Positions 5,773 through 8,412 of a stretch of 16,481 bases of DNA are shown one piece after another. Source of the stretch: a virus (Duplodnaviria > Heunggongvirae > Uroviricota > Caudoviricetes). The position numbers were made by a program, and so were the translations under genes. How positions within the stretch are numbered: the stretch's first letter is position 1; every line of letters begins with the position of its first letter. The stretch lies in the IMG/VR virus record IMGVR_UViG_2563366825_000024. One strand, written 5' to 3'. A model generated the notes under the pieces. The model saw nothing but the letters and a program-made list of their open reading frames with translations, made no database searches and was not told where the DNA came from.

Positions 5773-7035
5773 TTACTTCATCCAGCCTTTGATCTTCTCG
5801 GCAGATGCGGAAGCGCTATAATCCAGCGCCTTTTCATGCTCTGCCTTTTTATCCCTGAGGTGATTCTGGTAATAAATTTCCACCTCCTTTTCACGACCAG
5901 GTTCCAGCAAAGCAGGCATATTGGCGGCAGTCGCTTTTACAAACTCCTGTTTAACCGGATCGCCCGCCGCCCACGTCTGCCACTTCTGTAAAAGCTGTTG
6001 GGTTTTCTGTTGCTGAATTTTCTGTTGATGCGGTTGTGAACCAGTCGCAGCATAATATTCATCCACCGCAGCCTGTGCATTACCGCCATTCTTGATCGCG
6101 TCCGCCGCTACGTTGCTGGCCCCCTTCTGAAGCTCTTTCAGAGAAAGTCCCTGCTGCTTCGGCATAAAATAACCATAATTTTTCGATATCTCTGCAAATT
6201 TGCTGCGATCCCTGACCTGAGCGATAGCCTTATCAACGGGTATCGCCAGCACGGTTTGATCATCAGGGTGCGCACTGCCGTATTCTGTTACAGGTTTATG
6301 CGCGGTGGAGCCATCGCTGTATGTGAGATCAAGGCCAATAAGTACGTACCCTTCCTGCTGCGCCGGTACGATACTGCCAATCCTGGCCTCTTTTATCGTT
6401 TTTTCCCCGGTTGAATCAGGCATGCCAATACGCTGTTGTAGTTCCGGGGCAAACACGCCGGAAAGCACATCGAGATTTTCCGGGGTATTCAGCGAAGCAA
6501 TCGCCCTGTCCGGCTTATCATCAAAGATTTTCTGCAGGTTGTTCACGGCCTGACCCGCTTTCGCAGCATAGCCTACCGTTGACATCATCTTAAGCGGATT
6601 GGCGTCCGATAATTTACCGAACAGATGAGAAGCCGCATCATGGTCACCCGCATCAATCGCTTTTCCCAGCGCCGCCATCACAGGCTGATCGCGCGCCAGC
6701 ATATCGTTATACTCAAGCCGTCGCTGGTTGTATTTCTGCAACTGGAGTCGTTGCTGTTCCATCCCCAGCGACGCATTCCGGTAATTCTGGTTGGCGTTAA
6801 ACTCCCTTTCCTGCAGTGTGTAATTGCGGTCATCAACTTTGGCTCTGTAATCAAAGTTCCGCTGATCAACGTCTTTATTATGTTCAAACTGAGACTGCGC
6901 AAATTCAAAATCGCGCTCGTTATTTTTCTGTTGCTGAGCAAGCTGTGCTTCTCGCAAACCAAGCTCCTTACGACGGGTCATTGCCTGGTCAACAGTGCTG
7001 AATCCGGCAAGTAACCCCTGTGCAAATCCGCTCAT
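5773..7035 (-). CDS. Hypothetical protein, 420 aa, Gln/Asn-rich with coiled-coil-like N-terminal half
   Basis: ATG at 7033-7035 with AAGGAG 6 nt upstream, overlapping the stop of the upstream 83-aa gene. Long ORF, co-directional and tightly packed with neighbours. No family recognised. Confidence 0.75.
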   Translation of the reverse strand: MSGFAQGLLAGFSTVDQAMTRRKELGLREAQLAQQQKNNERDFEFAQSQFEHNKDVDQRNFDYRAKVDDRNYTLQEREFNANQNYRNASLGMEQQRLQLQKYNQRRLEYNDMLARDQPVMAALGKAIDAGDHDAASHLFGKLSDANPLKMMSTVGYAAKAGQAVNNLQKIFDDKPDRAIASLNTPENLDVLSGVFAPELQQRIGMPDSTGEKTIKEARIGSIVPAQQEGYVLIGLDLTYSDGSTAHKPVTEYGSAHPDDQTVLAIPVDKAIAQVRDRSKFAEISKNYGYFMPKQQGLSLKELQKGASNVAADAIKNGGNAQAAVDEYYAATGSQPHQQKIQQQKTQQLLQKWQTWAAGDPVKQEFVKATAANMPALLEPGREKEVEIYYQNHLRDKKAEHEKALDYSASASAEKIKGWMK

Positions 7036-7045
7036 TCACCACTCC

Positions 7046-7297
7046 TTAAAACAAAGAACCAGCAATGCCGCCAATTACTGCACCAGCAACAGCGCCAACA
7101 GGACCACCAACGGATGCGCCAATAGCCGCCCCCGTACCAATGCCCGTACCGATATTCTGCTTGTTCTGCGCTTTCTGCTGCGCCGCCATCTGTTTGTTCG
7201 CAGCCTCAATTTCTTCACGTCGTCGGTCTGCGTCACTTATTCCCTGTAATGCCTCACGCCGTGACTGATTCGCAATATCCAGTAAACCGTATCCCAT
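7046..7297 (-). CDS. Small protein (83 aa): charged N-terminal half, C-terminal glycine-zipper hydrophobic segment (probable membrane anchor)
   Basis: ATG at 7295-7297 preceded by AAGGAGG that overlaps the stop of the upstream gene. C-terminus GTGIGTGAAIGASVGGPVGAVAGAVIGGIAGSLF is a GxxxG-type repeat. Confidence 0.7.
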   Translation of the reverse strand: MGYGLLDIANQSRREALQGISDADRRREEIEAANKQMAAQQKAQNKQNIGTGIGTGAAIGASVGGPVGAVAGAVIGGIAGSLF

Positions 7298-7306
7298 ATT
7301 TCCTCC

Positions 7307-7759
7307 TTACGCTGACACCAGTTGTCCGCCAACACTCAGTTGCTGTCTTGCAGGTGCAGAAGCCCCCGTCAGTATGTTCATCTGACGATCCTGCTCTGCT
7401 TCACGGATACCATTTTTCGCGCCAGCAATTGCCAGGGCATTACGTAACCCCAGCGTATTACTGTTGGGATTATCAGGTCGGTTAACGCCATATCGTGCCA
7501 TCTGGTTATCCTGCGCCATCTGCGCTGTACGGAGACTGGAAGTGGCAAGGCCGCCCACCCGGGCAAGCTGTGCATTCATCAGGCTGTTGTTCTCGCCAAG
7601 GTCAGCCAGCCTTGCTACACGGGGTAAATATCTGGTGCGCCAGTCGTCGTATTGCTGGCGGGTCAGCGCTGCGGATGTCTGCCAGTCCCCCTGAGGGCGG
7701 GCTGCTCCGGTATAACCGTATCTCGCAAGTGTTTCGTATTTACCGTACTCCATAATCAC
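7307..7759 (-). CDS. Hypothetical protein, about 148-150 aa; start ambiguous (GTG at 7759 or ATG at 7753)
   Basis: Track start is GTG. ATG two codons downstream (7751-7753) has GGAG 9 nt upstream and lies 2 nt after the TGA of the 218-aa gene. Stop at 7307-7309 overlaps the SD of the next gene. Confidence 0.65.
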   Translation of the reverse strand: MIMEYGKYETLARYGYTGAARPQGDWQTSAALTRQQYDDWRTRYLPRVARLADLGENNSLMNAQLARVGGLATSSLRTAQMAQDNQMARYGVNRPDNPNSNTLGLRNALAIAGAKNGIREAEQDRQMNILTGASAPARQQLSVGGQLVSA

Positions 7760-8412
7760 AGTCTCCAGTTCTGAGCCTGATGCTGAATGGCATTAGCGCC
7801 GGTGCCAGGTGTTTTAGCACCGCCACTTCCTCCGCTACCACCAGCCTTATGCATCGCATATGCACCTACCGCACCCAAACCAGCGCCAACAAGAGAGGCT
7901 CGCCCCTGTTGTTTCGTAAACGCAGCCTGTGCGTCCGATTTAGCTTTTGCCAGACTGCTGTCTGCCAGCGAGTTAAAACTCTGTAACGCATCTGCCTTCT
8001 GACCGGAACCGAGAGCCGCAACATCCTGTAGCCCGGCAATATATTTATCTGCCTGCGATACCTGCCCCCGTGTGGTCGTGTCAATCTGCCCGATCACCTG
8101 GTCGCTTTGATTTGCATCCATTACTGCATTAAAACGACCACTGGATGGGTCAACGCCGGACTGAGCAAGATTACCCGCCAGCTCCCTTCGCGCTTCACCA
8201 AACTGTTTCTGATACCCAAGATTTGTTGTGCCTGCGATATTTTCGTACTGCTGCTCACTGTTAAGGTCATCGACCTTTTTCATGAAGTTATCTTCTGCCG
8301 GACGGAGAATATTTTTGTAATCCTGCCACCCTTTCCAGGCCACCTCTTCCTGTGCTATTTGCGCTGCTGTTGGTTTTACTTTGGTATCACCACCACCTTT
8401 ACTTCCGCCCAT
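7756..8412 (-). CDS. Hypothetical protein, 218 aa, Gly-rich N-terminus (MGGSKGGG) and Gly/Ala-rich hydrophobic C-terminal segment
   Basis: True ATG at 8410-8412 with GAGGAG 5 nt upstream. First gene of the co-directional module. No family recognised. Confidence 0.7.
   Translation of the reverse strand: MGGSKGGGDTKVKPTAAQIAQEEVAWKGWQDYKNILRPAEDNFMKKVDDLNSEQQYENIAGTTNLGYQKQFGEARRELAGNLAQSGVDPSSGRFNAVMDANQSDQVIGQIDTTTRGQVSQADKYIAGLQDVAALGSGQKADALQSFNSLADSSLAKAKSDAQAAFTKQQGRASLVGAGLGAVGAYAMHKAGGSGGSGGAKTPGTGANAIQHQAQNWRL

Follow-up and report, generated by a model that had tools for sequence, protein, structure and literature searches.

Podovirus ejection-protein operons are known from P22 (genes 7-20-16), T7 (14-15-16) and DEV (73-72-71). 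In T7 (gp14/15/16) and in N4 and DEV (gp52(73)/gp51(72)/gp50(71)), a small membrane protein is followed by a helical periplasmic-tunnel protein and then by a very large protein, all of them encapsidated and ejected, and the giant member of DEV and N4 (the virion RNA polymerase, vRNAP) brings along an enzymatic payload and cannot be seen in maps of the capsid. In P22, a late-operon block after the tail genes encodes proteins of 151, 229, 471 and 609 aa, in this order. Here we analysed a stretch of 16,481 nt from a virus of the Caudoviricetes (IMG/VR record IMGVR_UViG_2563366825_000024; this whole stretch is called the window below), in which a block built on the same logic encodes proteins of 133 aa, 218 aa (followed by two more, of 148 and 83 aa) and 420 aa, and then a giant polyvalent protein. 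We consider it likely that the 218-, 148-, 83- and 420-aa proteins and the giant protein are internal virion (ejection, E) proteins of podoviruses of the 933W/Sp5/phi24B type, and the best-supported interpretation of the module is that of a variant of the podovirus ejection-protein operon. In the searchable literature, we found no paper assigning the four smaller proteins a role.

The window is the late-operon end of a Shiga toxin (Stx)-converting prophage of the 933W/Sp5/phi24B type. With 90-99% DNA identity across 80% or more of its length, the module region (~2.6 kb) has matches in 186 phage records, all of which come from Stx-converting Sepvirinae with short tails (933W, VT2-Sakai/Sp5, phage 86, phi24B, ArgO145). 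In those phages the late operon ends with the tail genes, lom, a hok-like gene, the 133-aa gene, the four genes, a gene of ~2790 aa and attR/int, in that order.

An earlier note on this DNA, made from its letters only, had described four tightly packed minus-strand genes with Shine-Dalgarno sequences overlapping the preceding stop codons. All four open reading frames (ORFs) were confirmed on the minus strand: the gene of the 218-aa protein at 7756-8412 (ORF76 of Sp5, gp51 of phi24B), that of the 148/150-aa protein at 7307-7759 (ORF77, gp50), that of the 83-aa protein at 7046-7297 (ORF78; the 'bacteriocin homolog' of phi24B) and that of the 420-aa protein at 5773-7035 (ORF79, gp48). The 148/150-aa gene gives 150 aa from a GTG and 148 aa from the ATG at 7753, which is the start annotated in relatives. 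The peptides quoted in the note (MGGSKGGG, VGAGLGAVGAYA and GAVAGAVIGGIAGSLF) were located in the translations as well. At the first junction, the TGA stop of the 218-aa gene overlaps the GTG (GTGA) and a GGAG lies 9 nt ahead of the ATG, leaving a 2-nt gap if the ATG is the start; the junction of the 148- and 83-aa genes reads TAAGGAGGAaatATG; and that of the 83- and 420-aa genes reads TAAGGAGtggtgaATG, with AAGGAG at 7042-7047 overlapping the stop of the 83-aa gene, as had been said. The four genes are real, intact and translationally coupled.

The note had further described the four genes as feeding into the giant gene (1-5688, minus strand; ORF80 of Sp5, 2793 aa, and gp47 of phi24B, 2811 aa), which starts with the ATG at 5688 and encodes in the window an N-terminal part of 1896 aa without a stop, continuing beyond the window edge. 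Synteny with the giant gene holds, but coupling does not: an 84-nt spacer (5689-5772) with a terminator-like hairpin and a run of seven T (T7; 5708-5727, minus strand) separates the 420-aa gene from the GGAG-ATG of the giant gene, which is a separate cistron. Analogous hairpins, differing in sequence, are found at this junction in Salmonella-type loci and in Vibrio phage 1.205.O, and the junction resembles an insertion hot spot because other relatives have 0.3-1.8 kb of AT-rich DNA inserted there. At the head of the block stands the 133-aa gene (8506-8907, minus strand), a conserved companion, and a second terminator-like hairpin with a T-run (8435-8454, minus strand) lies between it and the 218-aa gene, just upstream of the latter. 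This hairpin occurs in E. coli- and Salmonella-type loci; in distant relatives, where the two genes are coupled, the spacer is just 7-8 nt.

The four proteins had been said to share a Gly- and Gln-rich character, and to be perhaps membrane-inserting. E. coli proteins contain on average roughly 4-5% Gln and 7-8% Gly. All four are rich in Gln (8.4-10.1%), and Gly reaches 13.8% in the 218-aa, 9.5% in the 148-aa and 18.1% in the 83-aa protein, but only 6.4% in the 420-aa protein, to which the description does not extend. Ala makes up 12-18% of the four proteins. Transmembrane-like hydropathy is reached only by the C-terminus of the 83-aa protein (KD19 1.69); the others have no clear membrane-like segment (the maximum for a segment of the 218-aa protein is 0.94). 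We also note that Cys is absent from each of the four, and that most members of the 218-, 148- and 83-aa families start with Met-Gly. The earlier note could assign none of the four to a family by eye, and Pfam likewise gives nothing above threshold. Each module protein matches its own PHROG (E-values from 1e-45 to 1e-195), all 'unknown function', and Pfam, PHROGs and PDB sequence scans of all these proteins returned only such PHROGs and sub-threshold Gly-zipper or bacteriocin matches. Existing annotation is uninformative throughout ('hypothetical', with the 83-aa protein occasionally 'bacteriocin').

Evidence that these proteins are part of the virion comes from phi24B, that is from orthologues 83-100% identical to the window proteins (218-aa 95.4%, 148-aa 98.0%, 83-aa 100%, 420-aa 83.0%), and not from the window's own phage. 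Published data on CsCl-purified phi24B virions list 523 peptide-spectrum matches (PSMs) for gp51, 129 for gp50, 13 for the 83-aa protein and 1634 for gp48, as compared to 10962 for the giant gp47, 2226 for the portal and 702 for the nozzle (doi 10.64898/2026.04.10.717836). Out of the 129 PSMs of gp50, 83 are from the batch digest, in which gp48 has 179 PSMs (portal 101, fibre 167), and gp48 and gp51 each peak in one gel slice (doi 10.64898/2026.04.10.717836), a distribution that fits intact proteins. The cryo-electron microscopy (cryo-EM) model of phi24B builds the portal, two adaptor rings, the nozzle, six fibres and the needle from other gene products; the giant gp47, abundant in virions, is absent from the map, and the authors propose that it is an encapsidated ejection protein, while gp48-gp51 are nowhere discussed in the main text (doi 10.64898/2026.04.10.717836).

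Genetic data are available for the same genes in Sp5. Mutants from which ORF79 (421 aa) or ORF80 (2793 aa) has been removed in frame form neither plaques nor lysogens, yet they excise, package DNA at wild-type levels and have normal heads; both are complemented in trans (Mondal et al. 2016, PMC5155283). Deletion of ORF76 (218 aa) leaves rare lysogens, obtained only from concentrated lysates (PMC5155283). In these published data, infectivity but not head assembly or DNA packaging depends on the 421-aa and giant proteins, and in part on the 218-aa protein. We found no data in the literature on expression of these genes in phi24B lysogens.

The link to a described ejection system comes from comparing family profiles of the module proteins (hhalign) with T7 gp7.3/13/14/15/16, N4 gp51/52 and P22 gp14/7/20/16, the kind of homology search that the earlier note had suggested as a check. 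Two of the 55 profile comparisons stood out, both with P22 gp7, so that two of the four proteins have segments homologous to this E protein. Residues 2-61 of the 218-aa family align with residues 22-97 of gp7 (probability 78%, E-value 1.7e-5, against the single sequence; 72% and 3.5e-5 profile-to-profile, with a gp7 family profile built from 54 gp7 sequences), the common pattern being GGKGG...AQK.A...QQ[WF]...LKP. According to the annotation of the P22 record, gp7 loses its first 20 residues to the host protease OpdA, and the alignment therefore starts at both mature N-termini. Residues 51-83 of the 83-aa family align with residues 196-229 of gp7, its extreme C-terminus (probability 91-93%, E-values from 9e-7 to 2.5e-7), with the common pattern PWGA.IG.G.G..GSLF, both finishing in GSLF; for example, the C-terminus of the Vibrio homologue of the 83-aa protein reads GGPWGAVIGAGVGYIGSLF and that of P22 gp7 reads STPWGAAIGGGIGLLGSLF. 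In a null test with composition-preserving local shuffles of the gp7 segments in place (150 each), the alignment scores were 42.5 (shuffles 15.3±2.1) and 40.4 (shuffles 16.6±0.6), and none of the 150 shuffles reached either.

Outside these segments, the 83-aa protein has a conserved MGYGLLDI N-terminus and a charged middle, followed by the C-terminal glycine zipper that ends in GSLF. The 218-aa protein has a weak Gly zipper at residues 172-190, without the GSLF ending, and its AlphaFold2 (AF2) model shows no confident fold (predicted local distance difference test score, pLDDT, 43.5), in line with proteins that change between pre- and post-ejection states, although this alone does not count as evidence. 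Prophages with a member of the 218-aa family are found in E. coli, Salmonella, Citrobacter, Yersinia, Pectobacterium, Dickeya, Brenneria and Aeromonas.

The family of the 420-aa protein is small (72 representatives out of 1.84 billion at E-value ≤1e-3). Its AF2 model, from an alignment of 56 sequences, is confident (mean pLDDT 87.7), and predicts an N-terminal helix of ~125 residues, a helical bundle (132-200), a small beta domain (213-266) and C-terminal helices, with the most conserved motif of the family, VTY.DGST...PVT, in the beta domain. No solved (PDB) relative of the predicted fold was found. None of the 56 members matches the Pfam family Inj_translocase (PF16928), hhalign comparison with P22 gp20 and with a family of 67 gp20 sequences gave probabilities below 1%, and the profiles of T7 gp15, N4 gp51 and DC1 gp66 showed no similarity to the family. 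Neither sequence nor fold similarity to the module proteins was seen for T7 gp14/15/16 and N4 gp52/51. The phi24B counterpart gp48 (421 aa) is labelled 'Transcription factor?' in the supplementary table of the phi24B study, and the 83-aa protein is called 'bacteriocin' in related phages; the transcription-factor label goes back to an old GenBank note, and we found this reading unsupported.

A protein of 1386 aa from Pectobacterium, P0270, connects the 420-aa family to P22 by another route. Its residues 4-264 match the 420-aa protein (29% identity, E-value 4e-18) and its residues 911-1380 match P22 gp16 (35.6% identity, E-value 2e-76, BLAST), and this natural fusion, judged by its sequence, ties the 420-aa family to an E protein. 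P0270 is encoded at L006:10001-14161 on the Pectobacterium chromosome CP195798.1, in an island with genes of an integrase, AlpA, Bro-N, a Toprim/DUF927 primase and TumE and with no capsid genes within 10 kb. The island looks like a satellite-like element with an ejection-protein chimera. A homologue of the 218-aa family (P0416) is found in Pectobacterium sp. LFLA-215, and the genome with P0270 probably also holds a phage of the 218-aa-family type.

In the giant protein, Pfam domains LPD5 (E-value 1.3e-45), LPD1 (1.5e-23) and MuF_C (2.4e-18) were identified. Conservation with the Vibrio phage extends over its N-terminal ~430 aa, which end in a further Gly zipper (406-425). The comparison of the giant N-terminus with P22 gp16 gave an hhalign probability below 1%, as did that of the 420-aa protein with gp16, and P0270 is the sole link to gp16.

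To see how far the module is kept together, we scanned IMG/VR with the 218-aa family, which returned 80 loci. Co-occurrence of the five genes across genomes, another of the suggested checks, was borne out: the order 133-218-148-83-420-giant is complete in 72 of the 80 loci, and among the remaining eight, seven stop at a contig edge and one had the two small ORFs missed by the pipeline. Since this order includes the 133-aa gene and is kept across loci, the conserved unit includes this gene as well. In the lytic Vibrio phage 1.205.O, genes of 131, 201, 117, 77, 442 and 3130 aa directly follow the tail genes, without lom and hok, and they are homologous one by one to their counterparts in the window (21-44% identity, E-values from 2e-7 to 2e-16). 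Aeromonas phage phiARM81mr has the same arrangement (119, 212, 124, 85 and 466 aa, and a giant gene). Among the tail genes of phiARM81mr, we also observed a retron-type reverse transcriptase gene (L004:6223-7509), which may belong to a diversity-generating retroelement.

The members of the module differ in how much they vary. Across E. coli-type loci, the mean pairwise identity is 95.6% for the 133-aa and 218-aa proteins, 96.8% for the 148-aa protein, 93.5% for the 83-aa protein, 91.9% for the N-terminal part of the giant protein and 87.4% for the 420-aa protein, which is thus the most variable member, its variation clustering at residues ~120-150 and 300-420. A conserved gp7 is likewise seen in P22-like phages, together with hypervariable gp20 and gp16, and mutations that escape SieA exclusion map to gp20 and gp16. 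The variability pattern of the module, with a conserved 218-aa protein and variable 420-aa and giant proteins, mirrors that of gp7 as compared to gp20 and gp16.

More distant relatives were found among podoviruses of ~60 kb of the GP4, Bcep22 and Pseudomonas types, with which these phages have a common head module. The Bcep22-like (Lessievirus) Burkholderia phage DC1 has this T=9-type head module and the same position of the block after the nozzle and fibre genes, and its gp64, whose gene precedes a DarB-like giant gene, is a homologue of the 218-aa family (hhalign probability 96%) and ends in a Gly zipper as the 83-aa protein does. Unlike the window proteins, DC1 gp64 is a single protein of 331 aa with an N-terminal transmembrane helix, and metabolic genes (GNAT, PAPS reductase) are interspersed in the DC1 block. 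DC1 gp66, which occupies the slot of the 420-aa protein, has no significant similarity to the 420-aa family, although by eye an N-terminal motif GAFAQGLVQG can be set beside SGFAQGLLAGF. In phage JC1, whose genome is syntenic, gp68 shares 80% identity with DC1 gp66, and gp64, which is likened to DC1 gp64 by its position, belongs to the same block; JC1 gp64, gp68 and the giant DarB-like gp69 are virion-associated according to mass spectrometry.

The remaining two small proteins are less easily placed. The 148-aa protein as a paralogue of the 218-aa protein is a weak proposal (hhalign probability 32%, E-value 5e-4), and its comparison with DC1 gp64 gave a probability of 44%. The 133-aa gene (PHROG 610) heads the conserved order in each of the 80 IMG/VR loci, and its homologues by position are 42% (phiARM81mr, E-value 2e-29) and 26% (Vibrio phage 1.205.O, E-value 2e-7) identical to it. 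The 133-aa protein has no Pfam and no PDB match, and has no PSM or entry in the available part of the phi24B proteome table. Its gene holds the slot of P22 gene 14 (DUF2824) and of DC1 gp63, which is annotated as GNAT, and a common C-terminal pattern, 'A-R-x..G-[FL]-x-R', can be seen by eye in all three proteins; a profile comparison of the 133-aa family with P22 gp14 and DC1 gp63 (GNAT) found nothing.

Set against P22 as a whole, the module resembles it in gene order, in the gp7-like N-terminus of the 218-aa protein and C-terminus of the 83-aa protein, in the fusion of a 420-like domain to gp16 in P0270, and in having a conserved small component and hypervariable larger ones. It differs in that what resembles gp7 is divided between two proteins, separated by an additional one of 148 aa, in that the 420-aa protein and the giant N-terminus lack gp20 and gp16 similarity, respectively, in that the last member is a polyvalent protein of ~2800 aa as compared to 609 aa in P22, and in the capsid (T=9 and GP4-like in phi24B, T=7 in P22). 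With DEV and N4 the module has in common a giant member with an enzymatic payload that is invisible in capsid maps, although it has four small proteins as compared to one or two in T7, N4 and DEV, and its payload is of the LPD/MuF/metallopeptidase type and not an RNA polymerase or a lytic transglycosylase.

From these likenesses we infer that the proteins are released on infection, form a channel and divide the labour among themselves. Once the central needle is lost at the cell surface, the module proteins would leave through the tail ahead of the DNA and lengthen this tail of ~22 nm into a conduit across the envelope. The 218-aa and 83-aa proteins may jointly do the work of gp7 in P22, where it is the small membrane-active component, with the glycine-zipper tail of the 83-aa protein as the putative membrane-inserting element. 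The 420-aa protein, with its long helix, would be a tunnel or adaptor component like gp20, T7 gp15 or DEV gp72, and the giant protein may replace P22 gp16, T7 gp16 or N4 vRNAP, working with the 420-aa protein and also delivering enzymatic domains. The 148-aa protein could be an accessory internal protein, and the non-virion 133-aa protein may assist assembly. The earlier note had proposed a co-assembled set of an ejection or translocation apparatus. Its ejection half is supported by the detection of orthologues in virions, the gp7 homology segments, the gp16 fusion and the synteny, and by a contiguous operon beside the tail genes that runs from small through medium to giant proteins. For translocation by an apparatus of the type IV secretion system (T4SS) kind we found no support: the locus is a phage late operon (of the Sepvirinae, beside attR and int), and no Pfam matches to T4SS or conjugation components were obtained.

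Mondal et al., who classed ORF79 and ORF80 as tail-formation genes, saw no labelling of the mutant particles, DNA-packed and with normal heads, by an antibody against the tail fibre (ORF67), with data not shown (PMC5155283). Read in this way, the proteins would be tail-assembly or structural proteins for building or attaching the short tail and its fibres, and the position of the genes downstream of the tail genes agrees with it. We regard this as unlikely, since the phi24B cryo-EM model fills the tail with other gene products, with gp48-gp51 going unmentioned and gp47 absent despite its abundance, since both the similarities to gp7 and the fusion with gp16 speak for E proteins, and since the negative immunoelectron microscopy, which is not displayed, could be secondary, for example to tails that are unstable without an internal core. 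Another improbable alternative, for which slightly more can be said, makes the four small proteins head-internal factors that load or anchor the giant effector and form no DNA conduit, like Hdf, DarA, DdrA, DdrB and Ulx of phage P1, which load DarB. The Dar system also has small head-internal proteins linked to a giant injected multidomain protein, a likeness by description only, and the invariant linkage of the module to a giant LPD/MuF-type protein, the DarB-like annotation of the giant protein in Bcep22-type relatives, the presence of the proteins in the virion but apparently not in the map, and the dispensability of part of the module would all be expected of such cargo loading. P1 Dar, however, is described as an anti-restriction system that protects P1 DNA from host type I restriction, and such a role would not account for infectivity being lost altogether: K-12 cannot be infected without ORF79 and ORF80, which correspond to the 420-aa and giant proteins of the module. 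P1 is a myovirus and needs no tail extension, whereas a short-tailed phage does, and no other candidate gene for it is evident; the gp7-like termini and the gp16 fusion, moreover, are links to ejectosomes and not to Dar. Cargo loading and conduit formation are not mutually exclusive, and the former, which agrees with most of the data, may hold in part.

The annotation of the 83-aa protein as 'putative bacteriocin' in ArgO145 and phiARM81mr raises a different possibility, that these are morons or lysogenic-conversion genes (a bacteriocin-like peptide, exclusion) beside lom and hok and unrelated to the virion. The neighbours lom and hok are indeed morons, the block is flanked by terminator-like hairpins, and there are sub-threshold Pfam matches to Bacteriocin_IIc and to Gly-zipper families. 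This explanation is largely refuted, and we give it hardly any weight: the block is kept directly after the tail genes, without lom and hok, in a lytic Vibrio phage, the proteins are found in virions, and ORF79 is essential. The 83-aa protein as a class II bacteriocin was rejected too, as its Bacteriocin_IIc match (19.7 bits) is below the cut-off (27.1), its neighbours are all module genes, and no leader, immunity or transporter genes were seen.

Several observations weigh against the ejection-protein interpretation that we prefer. The main conflict is the negative anti-fibre labelling mentioned above, for which internal proteins that stabilise the tail could be one explanation. ORF77 (148 aa) and ORF78 (83 aa) were also deleted singly and are outside the nine mutants that lose plaque formation on K-12 (PMC5155283); for ORF78 this does not sit well with the 83-aa protein as the main membrane anchor, although Gly zippers are also present in the 218-aa and giant proteins. 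The presence of the 83-aa protein in virions is a matter of just 13 PSMs, and the phi24B preprint treats this protein and gp48 as contaminants, under the names 'homolog of a bacteriocin' and 'transcription regulation factor' (doi 10.64898/2026.04.10.717836), a dismissal based on annotation alone. The gp7 similarities are short (~50 and ~33 residues) and partly of low complexity, and the Pfam family P22_gp7 (PF25688) is matched by neither the 218-aa nor the 83-aa protein at E-value ≤0.1, as compared to 428.5 bits for gp7 itself. Finally, ejection and channel formation by these proteins are as yet something that we infer.

A bolder version of the ejection-protein interpretation, which we offer tentatively and hold to be less probable than its opposite, is that the module represents a distinct, unrecognised type of ejectosome of the T=9 GP4/Bcep22/phi24B-like podoviruses. 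In it, an ancestral gp7-like protein would be split into an N-terminal (218 aa) and a membrane-tail (83 aa) protein, the 420-aa protein would dock the effector of ~300 kDa to the channel, and one conduit would serve both the genome and a multi-enzyme payload; residues ~120-150 and 300-420 of the 420-aa protein would be a superinfection-exclusion interface, and satellites would tap in via chimeras such as P0270.

Around the module, the window contains further features. A gene of the Lom/Ail outer-membrane family (9337-10074, minus strand) separates the tail genes from the module and has a terminator-like hairpin of its own at 9314-9294, and in relatives a Hok/Gef-type toxin gene is found in the region ~8930-9320. 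Both lom and hok are missing from the Vibrio and Aeromonas versions of the locus, and we therefore take them to be morons inserted into the late operon. Upstream of a 208-aa membrane gene, the prophage is interrupted by IS600 (10991-11737, minus strand), which is followed by IS30 (11961-13112), a second IS600 (13197-14015), a truncated Tn3-family transposase gene (DUF4158; 14012-15730, minus strand) and a resolvase gene (15891-16481). The right-hand part of this mobile-element stretch (10991-16481) is 100% identical to E. coli plasmids. Because this pile of mobile elements truncates the prophage upstream of the 208-aa gene, the copy in the window is a prophage remnant, yet its module ORFs are intact.

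Short-tailed Stx phages spread Shiga toxin genes, and after binding BamA they have to bring their DNA across the envelope. Their late-region genes still go under 'hypothetical', or under wrong labels such as 'bacteriocin', 'portal' or 'transcription factor'. If the 133-218-148-83-420-giant block is taken as an internal or ejection module, five or six genes receive names and testable roles. Hundreds of sequenced Stx phages have these genes, as do many prophages of Salmonella, Yersinia, Pectobacterium, Aeromonas and Vibrio. The ejection reading reconciles the genetics of Sp5 with the proteomics of phi24B, and suggests that two proteins discarded as contaminants in a 2026 preprint are genuine virion components. 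It makes the variable 420-aa protein a likely determinant of exclusion or entry specificity, and connects E proteins of the P22 type with a much broader range of podoviruses in which a giant polyvalent protein is packaged.

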